From: Candidatus Thorarchaeota archaeon
GTDB lineage: Archaea; Asgardarchaeota; Thorarchaeia; Thorarchaeales; Thorarchaeaceae
Length of the DNA: 12,302 nucleotides
Assembly: GCA_048882385.1 (NCBI GenBank)
Contig: JBHLRQ010000087.1
Span: 1 to 12,302, forward strand
Reading direction: 5' to 3'
Position 1 is the stretch's first letter; each line of letters opens with the position of its first letter. Below the pieces are notes generated by a model. That model worked only from the letters and a program-made list of their open reading frames with translations. It did no database searches and was not told the origin of the DNA. Position numbers and translations under genes: made by a program. Shown one piece after another: positions 1 to 12,302 of this stretch.

Positions 1-543
1 TATGCTTGCATCATGGATGTTGCCGATGAATTCGAACCAGTTATTGCACCGACACCAAAACCAGAAGCCAAACCTGTGCCAGAGCCTGAAACAGTTGAAG
101 AGGAACATGTTGAGGAGTATGTACCTGAGGTTGAAGCTCCCGCCGCGAAACTTACTAAACTACCCATTGAAACCATAGAAGGTATCGGAGATGTCTATGG
201 AAAGGAACTCAAGGCAGCTGGTATTGCTACTGTTGCAGATCTAATGGTTGCCGATGCTGACAAGGTAGCTGAGGTAACTGATGTCAAAAAAGAACAGGCT
301 GAACGTTGGATTGCAATGAGTAGGTTCGCTTGGCTTGATGAAGTGTCAGAGGAGGATGCTGAGGCAATAGTGTTTGCCACTGGTATCACAGACCTCGAGA
401 CACTTGCAAAAGCGTCTGCGGATGACATCTACAATAAGATTCAGGTAGCATTGGACGAGGGTGATGTCAGAGTACCTGCTGGATACAAGTTCAGCAAGGA
501 CAAGATCAAAACCTGGATTGACGCTGCGAAAAAGCTGACTTGA
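1..543 (+). CDS. DUF4332-like helix-hairpin-helix protein, C-terminal part (probably 5'-truncated by the window)
   Basis: The frame is open from base 1 (TAT GCT TGC ATC ATG...). A Pro/Glu-rich linker is followed by IETIEGIGDVYGKELKAAGIATVADL and a second repeat, LDEVSEEDAEAIVFATGITDLETLA, typical of DUF4332 tandem HhH domains. Stop is TGA at 541-543. Confidence 0.75.
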   Translation, partial: YACIMDVADEFEPVIAPTPKPEAKPVPEPETVEEEHVEEYVPEVEAPAAKLTKLPIETIEGIGDVYGKELKAAGIATVADLMVADADKVAEVTDVKKEQAERWIAMSRFAWLDEVSEEDAEAIVFATGITDLETLAKASADDIYNKIQVALDEGDVRVPAGYKFSKDKIKTWIDAAKKLT

Positions 544-610
544 TTTCAATCAGATACCCGGTGAAACACTTTCAGGTCCCAATCATTTTTCAGAACCTAG
601 CCTTTCATCT

Positions 611-841
611 TCACCTTCGTCTATAGACCAACCCTGCAATGATAAGTCCAATGACTATTGCTGGCAAACCAGTGAACATGGCCAAGATCAGAGCATTACC
701 ATAGATGTAAGTACCAATATGTTCAGCGACCAGTTGTAGATTGATGATTGTTACAACACCATAGATGATGAGTATAACTGCAATCAGTATTCCTGCAAGG
801 TTTCTCCTATTGCTTCCTTCTGCCAAACGACTACTCTCCAA
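611..841 (-). CDS. Small membrane protein with two predicted TM helices (76 aa from TTG; possibly longer, see findings)
   Basis: Two hydrophobic stretches (LAGILIAVILIIYGVVTIINL; ALILAMFTGLPAIVIGLIIAGLVY) are flanked by basic residues (RRN, RRR), consistent with positive-inside topology. Confidence 0.75.
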   Translation of the reverse strand: MESSRLAEGSNRRNLAGILIAVILIIYGVVTIINLQLVAEHIGTYIYGNALILAMFTGLPAIVIGLIIAGLVYRRR

Positions 842-853
842 GTATGCTGGAAC

Positions 854-946
854 TCATTCACACTTAAGCTTCTTGAAATGGAAATGCACTACCCCCTGTC
901 CCCTTTCCTTCTTTTGGAACTCAAAATGTAAGGTGTGTTTCTCCAT
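854..946 (-). CDS. Possible 30-aa ORF MEKHTLHFEFQKKERGQGVVHFHFKKLKCE, in frame with 611-841
   Basis: ATG at 946-944 follows an SD-like AGGCGTGA. It ends at TGA 856-854 and has an internal xHFxFxK repeat. I recognise no homology. Confidence 0.3.
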   Translation of the reverse strand: MEKHTLHFEFQKKERGQGVVHFHFKKLKCE

Positions 947-1125
947 GAGTTCACGCCTTCTAGTAGCCCTCTGTGGGTATATTGTCCACATGTACTCCGT
1001 GTATTATCCAGGTATCACCAGGGAACAGTGCCACATAACGCCAAGTATTATTAAGAATTCCAGTGGATACATAAGAAGAAGAGGTGTGTTGTACCACACT
1101 AAATGAAACACGCGGTGAAGCGAAT

Positions 1126-1266
1126 ATGACCAAGGAAACACGACCAACATCAACCCTCCAAAAGAACGCGGAAGTCCTCCATACACTCTATGGTCTGTTG
1201 GACAGTGACCGTGAACCAACAGACCAGGACGCGCAGAGTCTTCGTTACCTCTATGCAAGTTCCTGA
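1126..1266 (+). CDS. Small hypothetical protein, 46 aa (MTKETRPTSTLQKNAEVLHTLYGLLDSDREPTDQDAQSLRYLYASS)
   Basis: GGTGA SD at 1114-1118 precedes ATG 1126. An AT-rich TATA-like TATTATTAAG lies near 1046-1055. The sequence has an amphipathic helical pattern. The ORF-track start at 1084 is probably too early. Confidence 0.65.
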   Translation: MTKETRPTSTLQKNAEVLHTLYGLLDSDREPTDQDAQSLRYLYASS

Positions 1267-1275
1267 CTTCCTTTA

Positions 1276-1376
1276 TGATCCTCATTTTCCAATGAGGTCA
1301 ATTCGCTGTCTCCGTGTGCACCTCCCGGCATCATTGAGACACAGTGGGGGCGAGCTCCCCTAGGTTCGTCCCCCAC
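1276..1376 (+). ncRNA. Three tandem hairpins (structured 3' UTR/terminator or small RNA)
   Basis: Stems are TGA(T)CCTCATT/AATGAGGTCA (1276-1300), TGTCTC/GAGACA with inner TGC/GCA (about 1307-1341), and GTGGGGG-CGAGC/GTTCG-T-CCCCCAC (about 1344-1376). Confidence 0.4.
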
Positions 1377-1434
1377 ACCAAATTGCGTGACTTGTGGTTA
1401 ACACCCTCTTCCCTTCCCATCCGTGGTGATCAAG

Positions 1435-1551
1435 TTGGCGACGACTGAAAGAACAAAGTTGGCCCGTTCCAAGGGCACATCTACCATCCTCAGAAAGCAT
1501 CGTCTCAAAGCCGATAGAACATTGCGTCGCCGTCTCAAGACAAGGAAGTAG
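1435..1551 (+). CDS. Small highly basic protein, 38 aa (MATTERTKLARSKGTSTILRKHRLKADRTLRRRLKTRK); absent from the ORF track
   Basis: GGTGAT SD at 1425-1430, TTG start at 1435, TAG at 1549-1551 followed by TTTT. Composition is 9 Arg and 6 Lys against 2 acidic residues. Confidence 0.7.
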   Translation: MATTERTKLARSKGTSTILRKHRLKADRTLRRRLKTRK

Positions 1552-1592
1552 TTTTGCAGACTCATTCAGTGCATCTTGAACTTTGGATATCA

Positions 1593-1610
1593 TTAGAACA
1601 CGTGTTCTAA
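1593..1610. promoter_or_regulatory. Perfect 18-bp palindrome TTAGAACACGTGTTCTAA, putative transcription-factor operator
   Basis: Exact self-reverse-complement in intergenic DNA about 65 nt upstream of the likely ATG at 1675. Confidence 0.55.
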
Positions 1611-1674
1611 ATAATCAGCAGACTTATTGTGTGGGACTGATGATTTCTCTCAAACTGTTTTATCGGTGAATGAA

Positions 1675-2349
1675 ATGAGTGAGAGTTTGATTTCAAGATT
1701 GAAGTTGGTTTCCATATTCATCTTCTTGGGATTTCTCATGACGTTGGGCATGGCGGCTATAATCTTCCTCAACCCTGGAGGTGGAAACCTCTATGAGATT
1801 CGACCTATTGCAAATGTGATTAGTGATTTATTAGCAGCGTCTCCATTGGACATAACAATCAACCTTGCAAGTCTAATATTTGACAACTTCTTCATGATTG
1901 GCTATCTGGCTATATTCTATGGTTTGTATCTCGTAACAAAGGGAAAGGATGAACTATTTGCGAGGATAGCATTCCTCCTTGGAGTCGTCACGTTTGTTTC
2001 TGATATGATAGAGAATGCGTTTCAGGCCGCTCTCTTGACTGGAGTTCCCAATGGCTGGGTACCTGCAGACAATATGTTCTCAACATTCTGGGTTGTGATG
2101 TTCCTGAAGGACATTTCGAGCTATATGGCTGGATTTGTGTTCATCGTGATGCTTTTGGTTTCCCTGAATATTCCTCGAGACTTCAGGGAAGAGAAGCTCA
2201 TCTTCATAATTCTGCTGGGAGTCTATGTCATTCTTGGAGTCATAGCAATTATTGACCCATCACTTCTGGTGTTCAGGAATCTCAGCTTCATGATCGACCT
2301 ATTGATTGCATCAATACTCTTCAGGAAGATGGCATCTGACCTTGGATAG
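1675..2349 (+). CDS. Polytopic membrane protein (about 6 TM), function unknown
   Basis: GGTGA at 1665-1669 precedes the in-frame ATG 1675, so the ORF-track TTG at 1627 is probably too early. Multiple hydrophobic helices. The TAG stop overlaps the next GTG start. Confidence 0.8.
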   Translation: MSESLISRLKLVSIFIFLGFLMTLGMAAIIFLNPGGGNLYEIRPIANVISDLLAASPLDITINLASLIFDNFFMIGYLAIFYGLYLVTKGKDELFARIAFLLGVVTFVSDMIENAFQAALLTGVPNGWVPADNMFSTFWVVMFLKDISSYMAGFVFIVMLLVSLNIPRDFREEKLIFIILLGVYVILGVIAIIDPSLLVFRNLSFMIDLLIASILFRKMASDLG

Positions 2350-3119
2350 TGAACCCGGTGCGTACGCGCCCGAGTGAGAAGTACTACCGTGACACTGCAA
2401 AGTACTATGACCTCTTCGCCTACAGACCTGATGAGCAATTCTTCAAGGAAATAGCCAAGAGGTATGGTTCCCCCATCCTCGAACTTGCATGCGGTACAGG
2501 TAAAATCTCTCTTCTACTTGCAGAAGAGGGCTATCAAACTGTTGGAGTTGACTTATCACAAGAGATGCTGGAAATTGCTAGGGAGAAACTCCAACAGTTG
2601 TCCGATGATGTTCAATCTCGAGTGGCTCTTCATCGAAGGGACATTACCAATTTCAATCTTGAACGTAAGTTTGCTTTGGTCATTATCCCGTCTGCTTTCA
2701 AGTTCCTGCTATCAACTGAAGACCAACTAGATTGTCTGAAGCACGTTCGAGAGCATCTATTAGATGATGGTGTCTTCGTTCTCGATCTCTATCCTGGGGA
2801 GGTCACTGATCAACAGGGAACGCATATCACTGAACCCATTGAATTGGATGGGATGAAACTGGTTAAGACTTACAAATATTCAAATGACCTAAACACACAG
2901 CTCCGACACTGGGATGTTGAGATATCGAAAACACATCCGGATGGTTCCGAGGAGCAAATCAAAACACAGTCTACGACTTCACTCATTATGCCTCGGGAAG
3001 CTGACCTCCTGTTGAAACTTGCAGGATTCGAGATTGTAGAGGAATACGGGGGTTGGGAGTTCGGCACATACACTCCTGAAACCTGGACAAGGATTCTTGT
3101 CTTGAAGAAACAGCATTAG
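2349..3119 (+). CDS. Class I SAM-dependent methyltransferase
   Basis: Motif I ILELACGTG, motif II VGVDLSQEML, then RDITNF, FALVII and HLLDDGVFVLD. Translationally coupled to the upstream gene (TAGTG). Confidence 0.92.
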   Translation: MNPVRTRPSEKYYRDTAKYYDLFAYRPDEQFFKEIAKRYGSPILELACGTGKISLLLAEEGYQTVGVDLSQEMLEIAREKLQQLSDDVQSRVALHRRDITNFNLERKFALVIIPSAFKFLLSTEDQLDCLKHVREHLLDDGVFVLDLYPGEVTDQQGTHITEPIELDGMKLVKTYKYSNDLNTQLRHWDVEISKTHPDGSEEQIKTQSTTSLIMPREADLLLKLAGFEIVEEYGGWEFGTYTPETWTRILVLKKQH

Positions 3120-3395
3120 TAGCATCTACATGGTCTTTCGAAATTCCAACAGGAGTACAGCTAGAATGGCATTTACCATCCCTACAATGATGAAATAGAA
3201 TCCTAGTCCTTTTTTCGTATTAAGATTTCATAATGAATTATCATTAGATTGAGAACTGAGGAGATTTTCATCTGTGACATTGATGCACTTGGGATGCCAG
3301 TTCTGACAGCTACTGAAACTGAGATTCGTCCCTGTTATTTTGGTAGATAATAGCACAATTAGGATGGATGTACTAACCTATTATTCTGCTTTGAT

Positions 3396-3433
3396 GTGAA
3401 GTTAAAAATAGAAACAGGCTTGAACAGAGGAGA
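3396..3433 (+). promoter_or_regulatory. Putative BRE/TATA (GTGAA-GTTAAAAATA) and SD (GAGGAG) of the hgcA-like operon
   Basis: AT-rich box at 3401-3410 lies about 30 nt before ATG 3439. GAGGAG is at 3427-3432. Confidence 0.45.
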
Positions 3434-3438
3434 GTAAG

Positions 3439-5190
3439 ATGGCTGTAGCTTTTATGGCTGCTCTAGAGCAGTCTCCAGAAACCTATGACAAGGAGTTCAA
3501 CAAGGTTCTAGGAGGTAGACAGGTTCTCATCCGTGAGAGATTACTTGAACTCGTCAAACCTGGTATGCGAGTCCTCGATCTTGGATGTGGACCCGGTTCG
3601 TTTACACAGGAAGCATCCAGAATAGGAGCAGAAGCAGTTGGTGTTGACTCAAGTGAAATTATGATTAAAACAGCTCAAAAGAACTCAGCTCAGTTGGAGC
3701 GAAGTCCAGTTTATTTCGTAGCAGATGCGCTCGAATTTCTTGAAATTCTAGTACGGAACCTGTCAATTCCGAATGGCGGTCCTGCCTACGCTGATGTCCC
3801 ACAACTTAACAAGAAATATGATTTTATTGTAAGCTCTTTTCTTTTGTCTGAATTAAAACCTCATCAACGTGAGCTCCTTCTACAAGGCATTGGGCTGGTT
3901 TTGAATTCAGATGGGATATTTGGAGTGGCATCAGAAACACTTCCAGAAAAAGGAAGCGCACGGAATAACTTCTGGAAACAAAGATCAAAAGCTCAGAAAC
4001 TAGCTAATAAGAAACTAATGCCACCGGTTGAAAAACTTGAATCGATTACCGAAACATCAGGGCTGAAAATTACAGCGTTTGAAAAATATGGCCCTGAGAT
4101 CTCGTTGGTACTAGGAAAAATTGGGGACAATCCACCTCAATCGGTTTATGAGAATAGACAACGAGAATTCCAAGGCGTCAGGGCAAGGAGCAGAATCTGG
4201 TACGACCATCTTACAGGGGGATGGAGAGGCATTCCTCTTCCTGCCGGATTATATAGAGCGGGGAATCCATCGAAAGGAAGTCCTGTTGTTGTCACAGCGA
4301 ATTATGAGTTGACATACTACACGGTGATGAGAGCTCTTGCAAAAGACAGTGTAGATGCATGGGTCTTAGTTTGCGATACTAATGGGATTAATGTCTGGTG
4401 TGCAGCTAGAGGGAAACACTTCCATACAAGCGATGTTGTTGAAATGGTGAAGCTCACACAGCTTGAGAAAGTTGTTGATCATCGAGAGATTATCTTGCCA
4501 CAGCTCTCTGCAGCTGGTATGGACACTAAAGAGATTCGTCAAAGAACTGGATTTCGTTCTCGTTATGGACCGGTCAGGATTCAAGATTTAAAGAAGTGGC
4601 TTGATTTGGATAAACCTAGACCCAAACCCAGAGACATGGCCACTGTAACTTTCAATCTAAGAGAGAGAATGGAGCAGACAGTAGCGCATATCCCCTTTCT
4701 ATTAGCAGTACTACTTGGTCGTCCGCTTGCTGTTCTTTTAGGATCAATATTTCTGATCAATGTGGTAACCACTCTGTTCTTGCAATCCTTATCACTGCAG
4801 GTCTTTTCTGTTAGCCTTGCCATTGTGATATTTATCATTGAGATTTTCATTGCATTATATGGTAATGCAATCATCTTGGGGCTGATTTTTCCTATTCTTC
4901 CAGCAAAGGGAAATTCATTCCTCCGCCGGGGTCTTGGATTAGCTGCTATCACTCTCCCCTTCGCATTTATCCTCATGTTCCTGCTCGGGGCTCATTGGAC
5001 TGAGTATGTTGTCTGGTCAGTTGCACAATTCGTAATGGCTGTTTCATTGACTATGGACTGGTCTGGGATGACTTCAGTAAGCGACCCAAAAGTGATTGAA
5101 CGGGAATATCCCTACATGATCTACACTATTTTTGTTGGGATTGTCATAATCATAGGATTCAATATCATTGTTTCACTTATGGGATGGTGA
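3439..5190 (+). CDS. hgcA: Fusion protein: N-terminal SAM-dependent methyltransferase (CpaM-like) plus HgcA-like corrinoid-binding domain and TM domain
   Basis: Residues from 45 give VLDLGCGPG and GVDSSEIM (SAM binding). From about aa 265 come the HgcA/CdhD-family motifs PAGLYRAGNP..SPVVVTANYELT, DTNGINVWCAARGKHF (Cys321), ILPQLSAAG, GFRSRYGPVRIQDL and MATVTFNLRER. About five TM helices and MDWSGMTSVSDPKVIERE follow (compare HgcA MNFTGxTTxTSxSGVxKE). The symbol means hgcA-like; Hg methylation is not established. Confidence 0.88.
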   Translation: MAVAFMAALEQSPETYDKEFNKVLGGRQVLIRERLLELVKPGMRVLDLGCGPGSFTQEASRIGAEAVGVDSSEIMIKTAQKNSAQLERSPVYFVADALEFLEILVRNLSIPNGGPAYADVPQLNKKYDFIVSSFLLSELKPHQRELLLQGIGLVLNSDGIFGVASETLPEKGSARNNFWKQRSKAQKLANKKLMPPVEKLESITETSGLKITAFEKYGPEISLVLGKIGDNPPQSVYENRQREFQGVRARSRIWYDHLTGGWRGIPLPAGLYRAGNPSKGSPVVVTANYELTYYTVMRALAKDSVDAWVLVCDTNGINVWCAARGKHFHTSDVVEMVKLTQLEKVVDHREIILPQLSAAGMDTKEIRQRTGFRSRYGPVRIQDLKKWLDLDKPRPKPRDMATVTFNLRERMEQTVAHIPFLLAVLLGRPLAVLLGSIFLINVVTTLFLQSLSLQVFSVSLAIVIFIIEIFIALYGNAIILGLIFPILPAKGNSFLRRGLGLAAITLPFAFILMFLLGAHWTEYVVWSVAQFVMAVSLTMDWSGMTSVSDPKVIEREYPYMIYTIFVGIVIIIGFNIIVSLMGW

Positions 5191-5195
5191 AGGAA

Positions 5196-5525
5196 ATGAC
5201 AACTGTAACTACAATCTCAGACTCTGGCAGGACTGATTTTTCCTATGATCCAACAAAATGTAACAGGTGTGGTAACTGCCTTGAGGTGTGCGGGTTCAAT
5301 GTGTGGGAACTCCCTGAGTCTGGTCCAGCCATTTTTGCTAGACCTGACGACTGCACCAATTGCACTGCATGTGCTAAAAATTGTCTAGGTGACGCAATCA
5401 CAGTTATGAATCTGGGTTGTGGTTGTGTATGGAATCAAGCAAGAAAACGCAAAGGTGATTGTCAGGAAACTGTTGTTGGACCAAAACAAGAGAGCCGCTC
5501 AAGTAACACGAGCTGTTGTGGTTAG
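5196..5525 (+). CDS. hgcB: HgcB-like 2[4Fe-4S] ferredoxin with extra C-terminal cysteines
   Basis: Two CxxCxxCxxxC motifs (CNRCGNCLEVC; CTNCTACAKNC) are followed by AITVMNLGCGC and a C-terminal SCCG, matching the HgcB layout. GGTGA (5186-5190) overlaps the upstream stop and favours ATG 5196; ATG 5184 is the alternative. The symbol means hgcB-like. Confidence 0.85.
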   Translation: MTTVTTISDSGRTDFSYDPTKCNRCGNCLEVCGFNVWELPESGPAIFARPDDCTNCTACAKNCLGDAITVMNLGCGCVWNQARKRKGDCQETVVGPKQESRSSNTSCCG

Positions 5526-5750
5526 AATCTTCTCTCGTTTTTAGAATCTAATAATCGTTAGAGTTAAATCAGAACAAAACGCTGTTGCTGTAACCTACTT
5601 GATTGAAGGCGGGAAAAGAACTCAACGAAAGAAACGATAGAACACCTGTTTCAAAGGTCGTTTATGCGAGACACTTCAGAGTAGAGTATCTCACATTTTC
5701 TGCAGAGTTTCCGCATCACTTTGGAGTAGGTTATCAATATCAAAAGGAGT

Positions 5751-7814
5751 GTGACTAAACTGAGTAATTATCCAACCAAAGATCCAGTGCTTGTAACCTG
5801 CGGACTTCCATATGCAAGCGGTCGGATGCACATCGGTCACCTCAGGACCTACGTGCCTGCCGACGTGTTTGTCAGACTCCTGAAGAAAATGCGAGTGGAT
5901 GTCACGTTCGTCTGTGGGTCTGACACCCATGGTACGCCCGTCATCGTGCAGGCTGAAAAGGAGGGTCTCACACCAAAGGAGACTTATCAGAAGTACCACA
6001 AGATTCTGGAGGACACCTTTCCCCGACTCAACATCTTCTTTGACAACTATGGGCACACAGACAATGAGGAGAACCACAACCGGACCATCCAGATTGTCCA
6101 GACCCTCGTGGACAACGGACACATCTACGCAAAAGAGATTGAGACCCCATTCTGTGATACATGTGGTCGGTCTCAACCTGACCGTTTTGTACGGGGTGAG
6201 TGTCCATATTGTGGTGCAGATGCACGTGGAGATGAGTGTGACCAGGGATGTGGCCGATACATCGAGCCAGGTCTGATCCTAAACCCTCGATGCGCAGTGT
6301 GCGGAAACCCCACACGGCCAATCACTAGGAAACACCAGTTCCTTCGACTGAGTGCGTTTGAGGACTTCATCGGAGAGTACCTACAGACAGTTGACGGTAC
6401 CAAGAACGCGAGGAACTTCGCACTCGGGTGGGTCAAAGAGGGTCTCAGAGACTGGTGCATCACACGAGACCTAGACTGGGGAATCAAGTTCCCTGGGGAC
6501 GACTCACTTGTCCTCTATGTCTGGGTTGACGCACCGATTGGTTACATGTCGAGCACAGAGCAGTGGGCAAAGAAGATTGGTAAGCCTGATGAATGGGAGA
6601 AGTACTGGAAACCCGGTGACGGTCGATTAGTACACTACATCGGTCTGGACATTGTCCAACATCATTGCATATTTTGGCCTGCCATGCTAAAGGGCAGTGA
6701 CTACAATCTACCATTCGCTATTGTTGCATCAGGAATGGTCAAGATCGAGGGCCACAACTTCAGTCGCAGTCGTGGCTATGTGGTGTGGGTCGAGGAGGAC
6801 TATCTTGACAGGGGTCTTGACCCTGACTATCTCCGATACTATGTTGCTTCGTACACGTCGCAGACAAAGGACTTAGACTTCAGCTGGGACGCATTCGCTG
6901 AGAAGGTAAACAACGAGCTTGTGGCTACCTTGGGGAACTTCCTCTATCGAGCCATACACTTCACTCACAAGCACTTTGGTGAGGTACCAGAAGGGAAACT
7001 CGATTCAAATCTTAAGAAGGAACTTGAGGCTGCGATTGAAACAATAACTGATGCAGTGAATGAGTATGAGCTCAAAAAGGTCGCTGACGAAGTTCTCAGG
7101 ATTGCTTCAGTGGGTAATGAGTATTTCCAATCTCAGCAACCTTGGAAGCTTGTGAAAGAGGACAAGAAGAAGACTGGTGAGGTCTTGTTTAATGCTCTAG
7201 CCCTAGCTAAAGCACTAGCCATCTTCATTGAACCATTCCTCCCATCAACGGCTGAAACGATATGGGCTCAGCTTGGAAACGAACCCAATACAGTTCATGA
7301 ATCTCTATTGACCGAATCACTTACGCCTCCAAGCGTAGGGACCAAACTCATGAAACCAGCTCCAGTAATCTCTAAGATTGATGAGGATCTCCTCAAGGAG
7401 CTCAAACAGATAATAAGCGATCGAGTATCAGCTGCATCAGCAGCACAATCAGGAGAGGTTGAATTAAAATTGGCACCAATAAAGGACGCAATATCATTTG
7501 ATGAATTCCAGAAAGTAGACCTTCGAGCAGGTAAGATTCTGAAATGTGAGAAGGTGAAAGGAATGGATCGACTACTCAAGATCGAGGTAGATATCGGTAC
7601 CGAGAAACGCACCATGGCCACAGGTCTCGGACATCTTTACAAGCCTGAAGAGCTCGAAGGACTTACCGCTCTCTTCTTGGTCAATCTCGAACCCAAGAAG
7701 ATTGGTGGTATTGAGAGTCATGGCATGATTCTTGCAGTCGAACGGGCTGACAAGGAAGGCGAATGGGTGCCTGTGAAGCTTGAGGAAATTCCGCCTGGTA
7801 GTAAAGCTGCGTAA
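5751..7814 (+). CDS. metG: Methionine--tRNA ligase, archaeal type, with C-terminal Trbp111/EMAP-like tRNA-binding domain
   Basis: LPYASGRMHIGH (HIGH motif), GSDTHG, four Zn-knuckle Cys pairs (CDTC, CPYC, CDQGC, CAVC), DWCITRDLDWG, YVWVDAPIGY, NFSRS (KMSKS equivalent) and C-terminal DLRAGKI...ESHGMIL. The exact start codon is uncertain. Confidence 0.97.
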   Translation: MTKLSNYPTKDPVLVTCGLPYASGRMHIGHLRTYVPADVFVRLLKKMRVDVTFVCGSDTHGTPVIVQAEKEGLTPKETYQKYHKILEDTFPRLNIFFDNYGHTDNEENHNRTIQIVQTLVDNGHIYAKEIETPFCDTCGRSQPDRFVRGECPYCGADARGDECDQGCGRYIEPGLILNPRCAVCGNPTRPITRKHQFLRLSAFEDFIGEYLQTVDGTKNARNFALGWVKEGLRDWCITRDLDWGIKFPGDDSLVLYVWVDAPIGYMSSTEQWAKKIGKPDEWEKYWKPGDGRLVHYIGLDIVQHHCIFWPAMLKGSDYNLPFAIVASGMVKIEGHNFSRSRGYVVWVEEDYLDRGLDPDYLRYYVASYTSQTKDLDFSWDAFAEKVNNELVATLGNFLYRAIHFTHKHFGEVPEGKLDSNLKKELEAAIETITDAVNEYELKKVADEVLRIASVGNEYFQSQQPWKLVKEDKKKTGEVLFNALALAKALAIFIEPFLPSTAETIWAQLGNEPNTVHESLLTESLTPPSVGTKLMKPAPVISKIDEDLLKELKQIISDRVSAASAAQSGEVELKLAPIKDAISFDEFQKVDLRAGKILKCEKVKGMDRLLKIEVDIGTEKRTMATGLGHLYKPEELEGLTALFLVNLEPKKIGGIESHGMILAVERADKEGEWVPVKLEEIPPGSKAA

Positions 7815-7823
7815 TTCTAAATT

Positions 7824-7860
7824 TGAGAGATGAATCAATCATCTCTCATCATACTTTTTT
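7824..7860 (+). terminator. Hairpin plus T-tract terminator after metG
   Basis: Perfect 10-bp stem TGAGAGATGA/TCATCTCTCA with a 5-nt loop, then TTTTTT at 7855-7860. Confidence 0.65.
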
Positions 7861-7880
7861 CTACAGACCAAAAGGATAAT

Positions 7881-7896
7881 ATTAACAATTGTTAAT
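7881..7896. promoter_or_regulatory. Perfect 16-bp palindrome ATTAACAATTGTTAAT, putative operator
   Basis: Exact palindrome ending 10 nt before the likely ATG at 7907, overlapping an AT-rich promoter region. Confidence 0.45.
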
Positions 7897-7906
7897 TAGT
7901 TTCGTT

Positions 7907-8923
7907 ATGAAAAGACTAGTTTTCGTTTTAACAATTATGTTTACGCTCTCCCTTGTAGTACCAAATATCGTTGCGCATGTGCCAATTTCTGCACAGGATG
8001 GTGAAACGATGGAGACCGCATTCTTCATTGAGGAACCTACTAAGAGTTGGGTGATCTATTCTGAGCTCCATGAAGCTGGTCACCCTAAATATTTCGCATT
8101 TGAAATTGATGCTGGAACACGTATCAGGATGCTACTTTCAATTCCTGTTACCGTTGATTCATCGAGTTTCAATCCCTCGATTGCTCTAATGGGTCCTGGA
8201 ATTTCAAATTCAAGTTCAATTCCTGGGTTTTTGGAGATTCCAGAATCATCTGGCGTGATGATAATTGAAAGTGAATCTGCAACTCCTGAGTATGAAGGTT
8301 TTACGCCCACTAGTTTCTACGCACTTATTGACATTGATATGCATGCTCCAGCTACTGGAGAGTACTACTTTGCAGTTTACGATGAATCCAATGAAGGGTC
8401 GTTTTCTGTTGCTTTAGGATACGTGGAAACATTCACTCTTACCGAATGGCTTTTGGTACCTTTTAGTGTCATGACAATTCACCAGTGGAATGGACAGAGT
8501 CTTCTTTCAATTCTTACTCCAATGGTTACGACGGTAGTAATTGGACTGGGACTTCTATGGAATCGAAGGGAGGAAATCAAGGAACTCGAAAGCGGAATTA
8601 GCTGGATTGGTGCCGTTGGTGCGCTGCTCTTCTTTGGTAGTGGCATCACAATATTCTATCAGATAGTTTTGGCAGCACTGTTTGCTATCAACTTACAAAT
8701 AATCATCTCAGTTCTCTTTGGAATGCTACCTGTCCTACTAGGATTGTTTACAATTCGAATAGTACTGACTGAAAATTGGCAAAGCATGAGGTCAAAGCAG
8801 ATTCGGCTACTCATTCTGGGAGGAATATCACCATTTCTCTGGGCTGGTTTACTAATCGGTCCGACTTTGGTCATTCTCAGTGCTGTTTTTGCTTCAACCA
8901 TCACAAAGACCAAAACCATCTGA
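7907..8923 (+). CDS. Hypothetical membrane protein: signal peptide, extracellular beta-rich domain and about 5 C-terminal TM helices
   Basis: MKRLVFVLTIMFTLSLVVPNIVA-HVP resembles a signal peptide (ATG 7907 preferred to TTG 7889). A beta-strand-like domain (GEYYFAVYD..GSFSVALG) precedes the hydrophobic C-terminal half. Confidence 0.8.
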   Translation: MKRLVFVLTIMFTLSLVVPNIVAHVPISAQDGETMETAFFIEEPTKSWVIYSELHEAGHPKYFAFEIDAGTRIRMLLSIPVTVDSSSFNPSIALMGPGISNSSSIPGFLEIPESSGVMIIESESATPEYEGFTPTSFYALIDIDMHAPATGEYYFAVYDESNEGSFSVALGYVETFTLTEWLLVPFSVMTIHQWNGQSLLSILTPMVTTVVIGLGLLWNRREEIKELESGISWIGAVGALLFFGSGITIFYQIVLAALFAINLQIIISVLFGMLPVLLGLFTIRIVLTENWQSMRSKQIRLLILGGISPFLWAGLLIGPTLVILSAVFASTITKTKTI

Positions 8924-8943
8924 GTACTGCTTTGTTATTGTGA

Positions 8944-8967
8944 GGAGTCTGATAACTTTCAGACTCC
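8944..8967. terminator. Inverted repeat between convergent genes (probable bidirectional terminator)
   Basis: Perfect 9-bp stem GGAGTCTGA/TCAGACTCC with a 6-nt loop, between the stops at 8923 and 8993. Confidence 0.55.
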
Positions 8968-8992
8968 AATCAGCAATTTAACATGAGTATTC

Positions 8993-9982
8993 CTATCTAA
9001 GTTGAAACAGTTTTCGTCGTGACTTACTGACATCTTGAAACTGCTTCGTATCTTTGCTCTTTCCGAACTTATAGCCATAGATCTCTGAAAGTGTATTTTG
9101 AATTGATTCTCTTATTGTGAGAAGTTTTCGAGGGATAATTTTACGAATTCTATTATCTCTACATATGGTTTCATGACTCAAACCTTCAATCAATGGACGA
9201 GCTATGGTTGCTTGAATTGGTGTAACAAGCTCAACCCAATAACTACTCAAATTTGGTGTGAGCAAAGGAATCGGGAATGCAAGTCTTTGTATCAACCCTG
9301 CCTCAGTAGCATACATTGTCATTAGATCTTGGTATGTAGTTATTTCAGGTCCTCCAATATCAAACGACTGTCCAACTGTATCTGGTTTCGAAATACATCC
9401 AACAAGATATTCTATTGTGTCTTCGATTGATATTGGTTGGGTCTTTGTCCTGACCCACTTGGGAGTTATCATCACTGGTAATCTGTTAACGAGATAGCGC
9501 ATTATCTCAAATGATGCAGATCCAGGTCCTATGATCATTGCTGCTTGAAAAGTCGTAACTGGAGTTTTTGATGAACGCAGAATTCTTTCTACTTCTTTTC
9601 TGGAACGAAGGTGTAGGCTCAGCTCATCATCTTTTCTTCCTAATCCACCAAGATAGATTATTCTCTTTGTTCCTAATTCATCTGCAACTGTAACAATGTT
9701 CTTCGCTGCTTGTCTATCAAGATTTGCAAAGTCTTTTCCGGAATACATGGAATGAACTAGATAAAATACGACATCACAACCTTTCATGGCTTCTTTCAAT
9801 TCTTCGATGTCTAGCACATCTACATGTACAGTCTGAACTTTTGGATGAGCTTTCCAAGATTGCGATTTTAGTTTGCTCTCTGTTCTCCATCCTGCGTGTA
9901 CATTGTATCCTTCATCCACTAGCCGTTCCACAAGTCGTGAACCCACATATCCAGTAGAACCAAGGACAAGAATGTTGACCAT
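8993..9982 (-). CDS. NAD(P)-binding atypical SDR oxidoreductase (YbjT-like), without an extra C-terminal domain
   Basis: ILVLGSTGYVGSRLV Rossmann motif, then FYLVHSM, RIIYLGGLG, SLHLRSRKEVE, GSASFEIMRYLV, PVMITPKWV and IARPLIEGL. ATG 9982 follows SD-like GTGGGGA. Confidence 0.88.
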   Translation of the reverse strand: MVNILVLGSTGYVGSRLVERLVDEGYNVHAGWRTESKLKSQSWKAHPKVQTVHVDVLDIEELKEAMKGCDVVFYLVHSMYSGKDFANLDRQAAKNIVTVADELGTKRIIYLGGLGRKDDELSLHLRSRKEVERILRSSKTPVTTFQAAMIIGPGSASFEIMRYLVNRLPVMITPKWVRTKTQPISIEDTIEYLVGCISKPDTVGQSFDIGGPEITTYQDLMTMYATEAGLIQRLAFPIPLLTPNLSSYWVELVTPIQATIARPLIEGLSHETICRDNRIRKIIPRKLLTIRESIQNTLSEIYGYKFGKSKDTKQFQDVSKSRRKLFQLR

Positions 9983-10003
9983 ACAGTTCCCCACAGATTT
10001 CTG

Positions 10004-10471
10004 TTATTGATTCATTACTTCACCTAGAGCGTTTTCCAGTGAAGTAGCTTTCTCATCAGATATTTCACCAGACTCTCTCCAAAAGATAGTCCCGTTCTTA
10101 TCTACCAGATACAAGTAGAGTGTGTCTTCGGTTGGAATCTCTAATTGCTCCTTAAAGGGAGCTTTATCAATATACAGAGTTACTGTCCGCCCTCGTGTAT
10201 CTCGTGATGGTATTCCGCCACGCATTCCGCCGTCAATCATCCTTCTAAAGAAGACATTCATCTTTCTGATTGTTGGTAGTTCGTAATAATCGAACCATTC
10301 CTTTTTTTCCATCAGATGTTCCAGGAAGGGAACCCAGCTGTTTACTAGCCCCTGTTGCCACTGTTGAAAAGGTACTAGGAGAATATTGTAATCTCCTTTC
10401 AGTTCTGAAGGGATCCTGATTCGATCCCCATTCAGATTGCTTCCAACCACATTTGGAAATTTATTTGTCAT
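10004..10471 (-). CDS. ATP10-like thioredoxin-fold protein
   Basis: FPNVVGSNLNG..IP, PFQQWQQ..VNSW, YYELPTI, IDGGMRGGIP and YLVDKNGTIFWRESG resemble prokaryotic ATP10-family proteins. ATG 10471 (MTNKFP) is preferred to 10525. Confidence 0.7.
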   Translation of the reverse strand: MTNKFPNVVGSNLNGDRIRIPSELKGDYNILLVPFQQWQQGLVNSWVPFLEHLMEKKEWFDYYELPTIRKMNVFFRRMIDGGMRGGIPSRDTRGRTVTLYIDKAPFKEQLEIPTEDTLYLYLVDKNGTIFWRESGEISDEKATSLENALGEVMNQ

Positions 10472-10571
10472 AATAACAACAAAAATATTCACTATAGTTA
10501 TCAATATTTTCATAGGTCGATACAAGTATTATTGCATCAAGATGTTCTAAAAACATGCTTGAGGGATTATC

Positions 10572-11018
10572 ATGAAGATTGACGAAAAAGTGAAAGATAG
10601 AATAAAGAAAGTACTCGATTCTCAAAGCATTGCAGTTCTTGGTACATCTAAAAATGATGAGCCATATTCGTGCCTTGTTGGATATGAGATAACAAACGAT
10701 CTAAAATCAGCTATATTTGCAACAATGCGGAAGAGACTGAAATATGAGAACATTGCCGCCAATCCAAGGGTGACTTTGATCATTGATGACCGCGATCAAA
10801 AAGACAGTAGTTTCAATGAGACTACATCAATCACAATTGTTGGTAAGGCCAATGACATAGTAAATGAGGATCGAGAAAAGTACGCAGAGCTCCTTGTAAA
10901 GCGGCATCCTTCGCTAACCGATTTTGTGGAGTCACCAGACTGCGCAATCATTAAGGTTGATGTAGACAAAATCTATGTTGTGAGTGAGTTTGAGTCAGTT
11001 GTGAAAATTGGGAAATAA
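10572..11018 (+). CDS. Pyridoxamine 5'-phosphate oxidase-like flavin-binding split-barrel protein
   Basis: IAVLGT..EPYSCLV, FAT...KYENIAANPRVTLIID and ITIVGKA motifs. GAGGGA SD upstream. Confidence 0.88.
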   Translation: MKIDEKVKDRIKKVLDSQSIAVLGTSKNDEPYSCLVGYEITNDLKSAIFATMRKRLKYENIAANPRVTLIIDDRDQKDSSFNETTSITIVGKANDIVNEDREKYAELLVKRHPSLTDFVESPDCAIIKVDVDKIYVVSEFESVVKIGK

Positions 11019-11044
11019 AACACAATTCATGAATTAATATCATA

Positions 11045-11800
11045 TCACAATTCTGTGGTGTAACGAGTTTCTACATCCTCCCCTAATTTTTCCAATAGTG
11101 ATTCGATAGGTTCAACATAGAAATAATGACCACATTTTCTGCACGCTACCATTCCTTCTCGAGACCTGTCATCATTATAGTATCTGTTTGATTCTCTACA
11201 TAGTGGACACGTACTACGAGTTCCATTGAAGACAACGCGTTGACCATCCTTCTTAATCACTGTTGTAATCCCTGATCCTTGAACAGCAGGAGGTTGATCA
11301 AATACAGGAGGTGGTAATTTGAACCAGAATGCTACAGATCTTCCAATGAACCCAATCAGGATTGTGAAGAACACAATCGTGAAAATTGCAAACATAGTTG
11401 AGATACCTGATCCATAGTGCAAATTCCAGATATACAAGTAAGAAATCAAACCCGTAACAAGTAAAAGAGGTATAGCAAGCAACAGTCCCTGAACCAAGTA
11501 ATCAGTCAGAGCCCTTCCAGTTCGGAACTCCCATATCCAATTCGCCACCTTGAGATTGCTCCATCCTCCACCAATTATTAAAACCAAGAAACTGAGTAGA
11601 ATACCCACGAAATACAGGAAACTGTATCCAGAACTGATCAAACTACTTCCTACAAAGACTCCCCAGCCAGCAATCAAGATGTAAGTCAATAACGAAAGTA
11701 GTATTCCATGTGCAAAGAGCTTAGTCAATCCTATCGCCCAATTCTGATTACTAATAGGATTCAGACCTTGTCGGCTTCTTGACGGTGCATCTTCTATCAA
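11045..11800 (-). CDS. Membrane protein (4 TM) with Pro-rich linker and C-terminal zinc ribbon
   Basis: GGTGA lies 7 nt before TTG 11800. Four hydrophobic helices, LPPPVFDQPP linker and CPLC-x18-CRKC. Confidence 0.8.
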   Translation of the reverse strand: MIEDAPSRSRQGLNPISNQNWAIGLTKLFAHGILLSLLTYILIAGWGVFVGSSLISSGYSFLYFVGILLSFLVLIIGGGWSNLKVANWIWEFRTGRALTDYLVQGLLLAIPLLLVTGLISYLYIWNLHYGSGISTMFAIFTIVFFTILIGFIGRSVAFWFKLPPPVFDQPPAVQGSGITTVIKKDGQRVVFNGTRSTCPLCRESNRYYNDDRSREGMVACRKCGHYFYVEPIESLLEKLGEDVETRYTTEL

Positions 11801-11919
11801 GGTCGACTCACCTTCGCTCTTCTCAGATACCTACTGCAGACACAGGGTTTTAAGATTGCTGACTTCAGCCAATTGAAGAGATGCGAATCCTTTAGTATCA
11901 TGAAGTACTGTAAAAAGAT

Positions 11920-12004
11920 GTGGGCGTCCGTGAGGAATCATGGTAAACTGACCTTCCATTGGTTTACCACACCCAATGATCTCTTACTATCGCCCACCCC
12001 TTTT
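11920..12004 (+). ncRNA. Long imperfect intergenic hairpin, candidate small RNA
   Basis: Pairings: GTGGGCG/CGCCCAC (11920-11926 with 11991-11997), GTGAGG/TCTTAC, ATCA/TGAT and TGGTAAAC/GTTTACCA (11941-11948 with 11962-11969). TTTT follows at 12001. Confidence 0.35.
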
Positions 12005-12063
12005 GAAGTCATATATTACAGCGGACTTGCACATCTCGTTGGTGCGGCGGGGAGAAGAAGAAA

Positions 12064-12302
12064 ATGTCAAACTCGATCTATTTCCTTCGACATGCAGAAA
12101 CCAAATTTGACCCATCACTCTCTGTTCGTGAGTGGTCTATTACTCCTAACGGAGTAACGGAGTCAAAGAAACTAGCAGCAACAGAAGCCTTTGGTTTCAT
12201 AGAAGGGATAGTGCATTCGAGTGAAAAGAAGGCTCGCCAGACAGCTGAGGTCTTTGCTGAGGGACTCGATGTCCAGACATACGAATTGCCTGGACTGGAT
12301 GA
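12064..12302 (+). CDS. Histidine phosphatase (phosphoglycerate mutase-like) family protein, 3'-truncated; absent from the ORF track
   Basis: ATG 12064 gives MSNSIYFLRHAETKFDPSLSVREWSITPNG...IVHSSEKKARQTAEVF...LPGLDE, with the RH[A/G] catalytic motif and the SS..KAxQTA and LxE motifs. Confidence 0.9.
   Translation, partial: MSNSIYFLRHAETKFDPSLSVREWSITPNGVTESKKLAATEAFGFIEGIVHSSEKKARQTAEVFAEGLDVQTYELPGLD

Follow-up and report, generated by a model that had tools for sequence, protein, structure and literature searches.

We analysed a 12,302-nucleotide (nt) stretch of DNA from a Candidatus Thorarchaeota archaeon (GenBank assembly GCA_048882385.1, contig JBHLRQ010000087.1, positions 1 to 12,302), hereafter called the window, in which two adjacent genes link an S-adenosylmethionine (SAM) methyltransferase to counterparts of the mercury-methylating proteins HgcA and HgcB. 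All features of the window described below are on the forward (+) strand. The first gene (3439–5190) encodes a 583-amino-acid (aa) fusion of a CpaM-like SAM methyltransferase, an HgcA-like corrinoid domain and five membrane helices, as assigned from Pfam and NCBIfam matches and an AlphaFold2 model. Its frame is open over all 583 aa and stops at TGA (5188–5190). The second gene (5196–5525) encodes an HgcB-like dicluster ferredoxin, recognised by NCBIfam, Pfam, the alignment of relatives and a model of the complex.

The frame of the ferredoxin (5184–5525) is open for 113 aa and overlaps the end of the fusion gene. A second ATG is present at 5196, 5 nt past the fusion-gene stop, and would give a protein of 109 aa. 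The latter is the likelier start, because the ferredoxins of relatives align from the second Met. The word GGTGA (5186–5190), overlapping the stop codon of the fusion gene, resembles a Shine-Dalgarno sequence and may function as one. We also read an A/T-rich TTAAAAATA word about 30 bases 5′ of 3439 and a T run 3′ of 5525. No RNA data set was listed as containing the stretch, a result with no bearing on whether it is expressed. The layout given in the initial annotation of this locus, an uninterrupted 583-aa frame joining the methyltransferase to HgcA-type parts, and an HgcB-like ferredoxin 5 nt downstream whose Shine-Dalgarno word overlaps the stop, was borne out by the open frames and the domain matches.

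Domains of the fusion protein and its ferredoxin partner

The N-terminal part of the fusion (aa 1–235; 3439–4143) was assigned as a class I SAM methyltransferase domain from its Pfam matches (Methyltransf_23/25/31/11, aa 32–179), its Rossmann fold and Foldseek. SAM motif I, VLDLGCGPG (aa 45–53; 3571–3597), is conserved among 54 aligned fusion proteins; G49, G51 and G53 are invariant in this alignment, and D70 is present in at least 90%. The NCBIfam model of the "corrinoid protein-associated methyltransferase" CpaM (NF043040) matched aa 4–217 over profile positions 3–204 of 216, scoring 106.5 bits against a cut-off of 180. The genome has 46 other methyltransferase matches to CpaM outside its two fusion genes, none above 67 bits, and most of them cover just the central region of the profile. 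L9, E10, P13 and Y16 are invariant across the 54 fusions, a true CpaM paralogue included. As defining features of CpaM, we observed both a class I methyltransferase with the family-specific N- and C-terminal regions and the pairing with an HgcA-like protein, here in fused form. Judged by these matches, no other methyltransferase model fits aa 4–217 nearly as well as CpaM, and the domain is a divergent relative of this family.

The corrinoid-binding domain (aa 262–404; 4222–4650) is of the type found in HgcA and in the corrinoid iron-sulphur protein (CFeSP). The CdhD family PF03599 matched aa 270–378 with 69.2 bits (cut-off 24.8; 3.7e-19), and the nearest solved structure by sequence was the CFeSP gamma subunit (2h9a_A, residues 318–430, E 4.6e-8). 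Conservation and the CFeSP alignment both locate the cap helix, NVWCAARGK (aa 318–326; 4390–4416), with Cys321 at 4399–4401. This cysteine aligns with the cap-helix Thr of 2h9a_A, and N318, V319, W320, C321 and G325 are invariant in the 54 fusions. The 583-aa protein has only two other cysteines, C50 in motif I and C312.

The membrane domain (4657–5181) comprises helices at aa 407–447, 449–486, 494–515, 520–542 and 550–581, as judged from AlphaFold2, hydropathy and the HgcA profile, which matches up to position 321 of 325. The AlphaFold2 model, built with 54 homologues (predicted local distance difference test, pLDDT, 87.3; predicted template modelling score, pTM, 0.81), consists of a methyltransferase with a Rossmann fold, another alpha/beta domain and, between aa 407 and 581, five long helices. 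When this model was compared with the PDB by Foldseek, the best match was the integrative HgcAB model 9a0b_A (E 2.9e-12, 346 columns, 28% identity); the remaining matches were class I SAM methyltransferases.

In the ferredoxin, two CX2CX2CX3C [4Fe-4S] motifs (C26–C36 and C57–C67, numbered from the ATG at 5184; 5259–5384) are each followed by G or L, not P. Five further cysteines lie outside the clusters: C79, C81, C93, C111 and C112. C79 belongs to a GCGCVW motif (aa 78–83; 5415–5432) and stands 12 residues past the second cluster motif, which is the position of HgcB Cys73. The C-terminal pair C111–C112 (5514–5519), the counterpart of HgcB Cys94/Cys95, is present in at least 90% of 23 aligned ferredoxins. 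In canonical HgcB, the essential Cys73 follows the second cluster motif by about 12 residues, and there are cysteines at the C-terminus (PMC7305189). Thus the cysteine pattern of HgcB, with two CX2CX2CX3C motifs, a Cys at about +12 and a C-terminal Cys, is found here in full, and the spare thiols noticed in the initial annotation occupy HgcB positions. On the basis of these alignments, the residues required by canonical HgcAB are retained in both proteins.

This pairing is constant. A dicluster ferredoxin gene (92–126 aa) follows the fusion at −28 to +56 bases in 30 of 30 loci, and the same arrangement was seen in 7/7 further two-gene-type fusion loci from other families (37/37 in total). The eight cluster cysteines and GCGC.W are kept in all 30 neighbouring ferredoxins, and in the window the motif continues as GCGCVW. 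Three loci (L057, L058 and L063) carry another type of methyltransferase::HgcA-like fusion, with the cap helix NVWCAAGG., followed by an 87–89 aa ferredoxin that has one or two terminal cysteines and is without the GCGC motif.

We modelled the complex of fusion aa 240–583 with the ferredoxin. The pair passed its controls, scoring 0.70 against 0.00 for the best of them; 58 of 80 solved complexes and 2 of 110 mismatched pairs attained this mark. Contact agreement between runs was at least 86%, and the partner pLDDT was at least 71. On the ferredoxin side the modelled interface comprises the two cluster motifs and the GCGC segment, and on the other side the last membrane helices and an invariant loop at 354–360. 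The model supports docking of the ferredoxin on the HgcA-like part; some of its success may come from resemblance to the HgcAB model already available.

Spread and phylogenetic placement of the fusion

A 256-contig draft genome such as the source of the window could yield a fusion as an assembly chimera, or as two genes merged by a sequencing error. However, contigs from four runs in four studies bridge the domain junction without indels (X7, 3300–5700; X2, 3300–5476; X1, 3300–4414; X12, 4027–4267), one of these runs being possibly the window's own source. Full-length relatives with 55–73% identity are present in six Thorarchaeota genome records, and a full-length homologue also lies on a single-contig chromosome record of 3,157,342 bases. 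Among the matches listed from 301 sampled genomes of the phylum, the frame runs uninterrupted across both domains in at least 87; 235 weaker matches are outside this count, and an automatic tally of 193 was inflated by methyltransferase-only matches. These observations rule out an artefact, to which we give practically no weight. They also rule out an unconserved singleton, which together with an artefact had been named in the initial annotation as grounds for giving up its proposal.

A protein database search with the fusion retrieved 563 proteins at E up to 1e-5. Pfam analysis of the best 120 of these 563 found the methyltransferase families and PF03599 in one chain of about 550–590 aa in 115 cases. 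The source names of the matches include Thorarchaeota, Sifarchaeia, Odinarchaeota, Lokiarchaeota, Hermodarchaeota, Promethearchaeota and Ca. Lokiarchaeum ossiferum. Nearly all of them are named "methyltransferase domain-containing protein" by NCBI.

The linkage between a CpaM-type methyltransferase and an HgcA-like protein was found in three architectures: separate adjacent genes, a fusion followed by a ferredoxin gene, and a triple fusion. The first is represented in other Asgard genomes by adjacent cpaM and hgcA(B)-like genes (loci L050–L053). These four loci had come up as matches with one in-frame TGA, and a selenoprotein reading was rejected, as they are plain adjacent genes. The third occurs in the window's own genome as a 643-aa paralogue on contig C57 (locus L004, 1498–3429, +), in which CpaM, an HgcA-like part and a 2x[4Fe-4S] ferredoxin form one chain. 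Its CpaM part scores 246.9 bits, above the cut-off of 180; its cap helix reads NVWCASCGK and its C-terminal ferredoxin is without tail cysteines. Stand-alone CpaM proteins of about 219 aa are known from Bathyarchaeia, Helarchaeota, Hydrothermarchaeota, Promethearchaeota and bacteria. A word-seeded search with the methyltransferase domain of the window alone found 10 proteins and no stand-alone CpaM among them; all were truncated or short Thorarchaeota-type sequences, and 4 still contained PF03599. As this search was word-seeded, it gives weak evidence against a free-standing close relative of the domain.

The Rosetta-stone link drawn in the initial annotation between the methyltransferase and an HgcA-type corrinoid protein is thus real and conserved, while its kind was already known from CpaM (NF043040), the HgcAB-like family (NF043039) and the C57 triple fusion. 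Such a link is already half known to annotators. In the literature searched we found no paper on CpaM or on a methyltransferase–HgcA fusion; two papers of the NCBIfam curators (PMC9879109 and PMC12013261) may describe CpaM.

Family membership was assessed with the NCBIfam models of HgcA (NF040863), HgcB (NF040864), HgcAB-like (NF043039) and CpaM (NF043040), a comparison that the initial annotation had proposed; all gave matches, and every score was under its cut-off. HgcA matched aa 268–573 over profile positions 31–321 of 325 with 191.4 bits against a cut-off of 275, compared with 425 and 394 bits for the canonical representatives P0126 and P0138. HgcAB-like matched aa 262–550 with 213 bits (cut-off 285; members 336–396). 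The ferredoxin scored 46.7 bits with HgcB (cut-off 99) and 49.8 bits with HgcAB-like. The fusion has the PF03599 domain with a cap-helix Cys and the five C-terminal membrane helices of HgcA. The canonical cap-helix motif, which we take to be N(V/I)WCA(A/G)GK, is altered to NVWCAARGK, with R where the canonical protein has G. Nor is the protein the single polypeptide that characterises HgcAB-like, since its ferredoxin is a separate frame past the stop codon.

A HMMER scan with the HgcA-like part (1061 representatives, E up to 0.001) separated three kinds of cap helix: NVWCAAGKG in plain proteins of about 330–400 aa, NVWC..xGG in proteins with a C-terminal ferredoxin, and NVWCAARG. in proteins with an N-terminal methyltransferase. 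We then placed the fusion protein in a quick maximum-likelihood IQ-TREE tree of 125 domains, each starting at the corrinoid domain, with CdhE of the same genome as outgroup; of 157 candidates, 33 had been dropped because N[VI]WC was missing or because the part starting at the corrinoid domain was shorter than 270 residues. As seven close relatives and the C57 paralogue had been included on purpose, proportions of architectures are readable from the 117 unbiased representatives alone. Of these, 43 are non-canonical, 12 of them with a methyltransferase domain, and 74 are canonical, with no such domain in any; absence in the latter was judged by motif and by Pfam on the four longest N-terminal extensions.

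The canonical HgcA clade comprises these 74 rows, with a Shimodaira–Hasegawa-like approximate likelihood-ratio (SH-aLRT) support of 100 and a stem branch of 1.03; its rows read NVWC(A/S)(A/G)GK, seven of them departing from GK. The fusion protein of the window is placed outside it, in a clade of five rows (SH-aLRT 100). Beside this clade are a second, Loki-type clade of methyltransferase fusions (11 rows) and the HgcAB-like clade (33 rows), each with an SH-aLRT of 96; the three branch from one node, and their order is unsettled in this quick tree. NCBIfam scores of ten representatives agreed with the tree labels. Within the HgcAB-like fusions, P0131, P0153, P0155, P0188, P0212 and P0213 form a subgroup (SH-aLRT 100) with an N-terminal extension of about 139 aa and the cap helix N[VI]WC(A/S)S; in P0131, the one checked, no Pfam family matched the extension.

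The score, the cap-helix motif and the tree together rule out canonical HgcA. From these comparisons, the fusion protein is part of the wider HgcA superfamily; it stands apart from canonical HgcA and probably also from the fused HgcAB-like family. The "full HgcA architecture" ascribed to it at the outset accordingly holds for the corrinoid domain, Cys321 and the five helices, but not for the family score (191 of 275 bits) or the clade. The placement agrees with a published two-clade picture, in which Thor- and Lokiarchaeota fall in the fused-HgcAB subtree and from which the first 327 alignment positions had been removed (PMC10083202); the trees and alignments of that study may show the N-terminal extension that was trimmed.

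The initial annotation had also called for separate trees of the two domains. That of the corrinoid part gave the placement above, while the methyltransferase part stays unplaced. In its tree of 53 rows, ten outgroup methyltransferases from the window's own genome were very long-branched and intermixed with the ingroup, and the tree is therefore silent on whether the fusion domain nests within CpaM.

Gene neighbourhood and the proposed reaction

We examined the genes beside the fusion in its relatives. In the window's family, the gene directly upstream encodes an ArsR/SmtB regulator at 10 of 19 loci (L020, L023–L025, L027, L029, L031, L034, L035 and L041), and all ten regulators contain ACVCE, the motif with which ArsR binds As(III). 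At 7 of the 11 loci of family f9 and at one f24 locus, the position directly upstream is taken by an arsenite efflux gene of the ACR3 type (L038–L040, L042, L044, L048, L049 and L062 together); this neighbour scores 281.1 bits against a cut-off of 282.8. Canonical hgcAB is likewise linked to ars genes and to ArsR-like regulators that respond to arsenic and S-adenosylhomocysteine, according to a preprint (bioRxiv 10.1101/2022.10.17.512643).

Elsewhere in the window's genome, an ACR3 gene is present on contig C204, and no homologue of the relatives' ArsR was found by tblastn at E up to 1e-5. Contig C119 (locus L003) carries the corrinoid genes of acetyl-CoA synthase, namely CdhE (482 aa), CdhD and a CooC-type ATPase, and the organism therefore uses corrinoids. 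The cap helix of this CdhE is without cysteine. No canonical HgcA was found in the 256-contig draft.

Upstream of the fusion gene, positions 1627–2349 encode a 240-aa multi-helix membrane protein, for which we found no Pfam or NCBIfam family and only unnamed clusters in an atlas look-up. In the nearest relatives (L012/L028, L033 and L036), homologues of 227–240 aa adjoin the fusion gene, and the protein may be a part of the system in this genus. Its stop is shared with the start of a separate 256-aa class I methyltransferase (2349–3119), whose best NCBIfam match is a methyltransferase of daptide-type ribosomally synthesised and post-translationally modified peptides (108 bits; cut-off 175). 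Homologues of this methyltransferase were not seen beside the fusion in relatives' loci reaching about 1.5 kb (L020–L049) or 4 kb (L012–L017) to each side. Three other frames have no link to the fusion finding: a DUF4332/helix-hairpin-helix protein by Pfam (1–543), a translation resembling methionyl-tRNA synthetase with a C-terminal tRNA-binding domain (5751–7814) and a 344-aa protein of membrane-anchored appearance (7889–8923).

On balance, and with somewhat better than even confidence, we propose that the two genes form an operon and that their products make up an enzyme, complete in itself and anchored in the membrane, for SAM-dependent methyl transfer through a corrinoid. It would pass a methyl group from SAM to Co(I) in cis and then to a thiol-bound soft metal(loid). 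The two [4Fe-4S] clusters of the ferredoxin would reduce the corrinoid to Co(I). The N-terminal CpaM-like domain would bind SAM and methylate Co(I) in cis, giving methyl-Co(III) with Cys321 as the lower ligand. Finally, the methyl group would be delivered to a soft metal(loid) or another thiophilic substrate held on the ferredoxin thiols C79/C81 and C111/C112. The SAM-to-cobalt step is suggested by the recurrence of the fusion, by the invariance of the SAM motif and by the chemistry of HgcAB, which in purified form makes methyl-Co(III) from SAM with Co–S(Cys) ligation (PMC11588087). The metal(loid) transfer step is suggested by the retained HgcB thiols and the gene context.

As for the substrate, the initial annotation had left the choice between a divergent Hg methylator and a related system acting on something else. 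Native Hg methylation found no support, and the neighbours in relatives point to arsenic-type stress. From these neighbours, our best guess for the native substrate is an arsenic-type metalloid, and Hg(II) may be methylated as a side reaction. A wider scenario is possible, and on the whole we think it rather unlikely: Asgard archaea, Ca. Lokiarchaeum ossiferum included, would have a SAM-driven, cobalamin-dependent metal(loid) methylase with CpaM performing the SAM-to-cobalt step and an arsenic-type native substrate, that is, an anaerobic, ArsM-independent route to methylated arsenic. Its architecture would be ancestral in the HgcA superfamily, the methyltransferase having been lost in canonical mercury methylases.

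Several observations weigh against the proposed enzyme. No activity has been demonstrated for any member of the window's clade, of CpaM or of the HgcAB-like family, and we know of no class I methyltransferase that methylates protein-bound Co(I). Neither ArsR nor ACR3 neighbours are present in the window or its nearest relatives, ars genes are absent from 6/6 loci of family f22 and from the 3/3 triple fusions examined, and the loci with such neighbours come from few, non-independent genera. The scores of all four NCBIfam models are significant yet below the curated cut-offs, and nesting of the methyltransferase domain within CpaM is not settled by its tree. Pyrococcus furiosus, the sole tested organism with a fused HgcAB, produced no methylmercury above controls (PMC4646819). 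Moreover, canonical HgcAB, which has no methyltransferase domain, was found to use SAM when purified (PMC11588087). The chemistry can hence proceed without a dedicated domain, and the cis-loading is a step that we infer.

Methionine synthase is reductively reactivated by means of a low-potential electron donor and of domains that bind SAM and a corrinoid, and these are the parts found here. The SAM domain and ferredoxin could thus serve for MetH-like repair only, rescuing Co(II) corrinoid in an enzyme whose routine donor is, for example, a methylated pterin or substrate; the Wood-Ljungdahl corrinoid system on C119 (CdhE, CdhD and CooC) means that methyl-pterin chemistry is at hand. We consider this unlikely. 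The activation domain of MetH has a different fold, and the lists of open reading frames of 37 fusion loci contain no second methyltransferase gene of the MeTr/MtrH type. In addition, SAM is a catalytic donor in HgcAB, whose cobalamin methylation is reportedly about 50 times faster than that of several other named SAM-dependent cobalamin methylases (PMC11588087).

In a different division of labour, the methyltransferase would act directly on the final substrate, or at a second position of it, the corrinoid would carry out dehalogenation or electron transfer, and the fusion would reflect co-regulation or anchoring. Class I methyltransferases normally act on small molecules, and this domain has weak secondary NCBIfam matches to metalloid methylases of the ArsM and TehB types. 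ArsM carries a thiol cluster of cysteines, whereas here the domain has a single cysteine, C50, inside motif I. The linkage to an HgcA-like protein also recurs in three gene architectures, and consecutive steps on one cofactor therefore fit better than co-regulation. Dechlorination of CCl4 by heterologously expressed HgcAB, described in a 2026 preprint (10.64898/2026.04.26.720869), is in favour of such a role for the corrinoid; overall we find this division of labour distinctly unlikely. A dedicated mercury methylase, with methylmercury as native product of a divergent HgcAB, appears very improbable to us. Counterparts are present for all residues important in Pseudodesulfovibrio mercurii ND132 (HgcA Cys93; HgcB Cys73 and Cys94/95), and the membrane domain is homologous through its end. 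However, the protein lies outside the well-supported canonical clade, all but seven rows of which read NVWCAAGK, its HgcA score is under the cut-off, and the tested organism with fused HgcAB made no methylmercury (PMC4646819). A native role in Hg methylation is doubted even for canonical HgcAB in two preprints (10.1101/2022.10.17.512643 and 10.64898/2026.04.26.720869).

Significance and comparison with known systems

Two questions are open in the field: by which route the methyl group reaches the cobalt of HgcA, and what the real purpose of HgcAB-type enzymes is. SAM was shown to be the methyl donor of HgcAB in 2024, a result that was "unexpected" to its authors. Our sequence comparisons indicate that, throughout an archaeal phylum, HgcA-type proteins occur covalently joined to a SAM methyltransferase, which is independent genomic support for SAM as donor in this superfamily. 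What is new here is an architectural and phylogenetic variant, widespread in Asgard archaea, of an already-recognised kind. The system appears tractable, as it consists of one polypeptide and one ferredoxin and has a homologue (P0099) in the cultured Asgard archaeon Ca. Lokiarchaeum ossiferum, so that half-reactions and substrates could be dissected. These proteins are annotated merely as "methyltransferase domain-containing protein", and environmental hgcA surveys may therefore miss them or miscount them as mercury methylators.

Among corrinoid enzymes of central metabolism, the large subunit of CFeSP (AcsC/CdhE) with its methyltransferase MeTr has a homologous corrinoid domain (2h9a_A) and a shared logic, in which Co(I) receives the methyl group from a methyltransferase and hands it on to a metal. 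In that system the donor enzyme is a TIM-barrel methyl-pterin methyltransferase, whereas here it is a Rossmann SAM enzyme. Moreover, AcsC/CdhE has a cap-helix Thr in place of Cys321 and is soluble, without a membrane domain.

With the reactivation module of MetH, Pfam, NCBIfam and comparison with sequences of solved structures found no similarity. The likeness is one of arrangement: in both, a SAM-binding domain is joined covalently to a cobalamin domain, and a low-potential electron donor comes from outside. In MetH, unlike the fusion, the SAM domain is of unrelated fold, cobalamin is bound His-on and the protein is soluble.

HgcA and HgcB (NF040863/NF040864; P. mercurii ND132) resemble the pair in the window in the CFeSP-type corrinoid domain with a cap-helix Cys, in the five membrane helices and in the dicluster ferredoxin, which is a protein of its own with two cysteines at the C-terminus and one about 12 residues past the second cluster motif. 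Further common traits are a methyl group that probably comes from SAM, and ArsR genes beside some loci. The pair in the window differs in its N-terminal methyltransferase domain (0/74 canonical representatives have one), in its cap helix (AARGK against AAGKG), in its position outside the canonical clade and in scores of 191 and 46.7 bits against 275 and 99.

The HgcAB-like (NF043039) and CpaM (NF043040) proteins are on the same side of the HgcA tree and likewise combine a CpaM-type methyltransferase, an HgcA-like protein and a dicluster ferredoxin. The fusion protein of the window scores 213 of 285 and 106.5 of 180 bits with these models and is in its own five-row clade (SH-aLRT 100). Unlike the HgcAB-like proteins, 12 of 20 fused representatives of which have no Cys beyond the second cluster, it has its ferredoxin as a separate gene that keeps both GCGC and the C-terminal cysteines.

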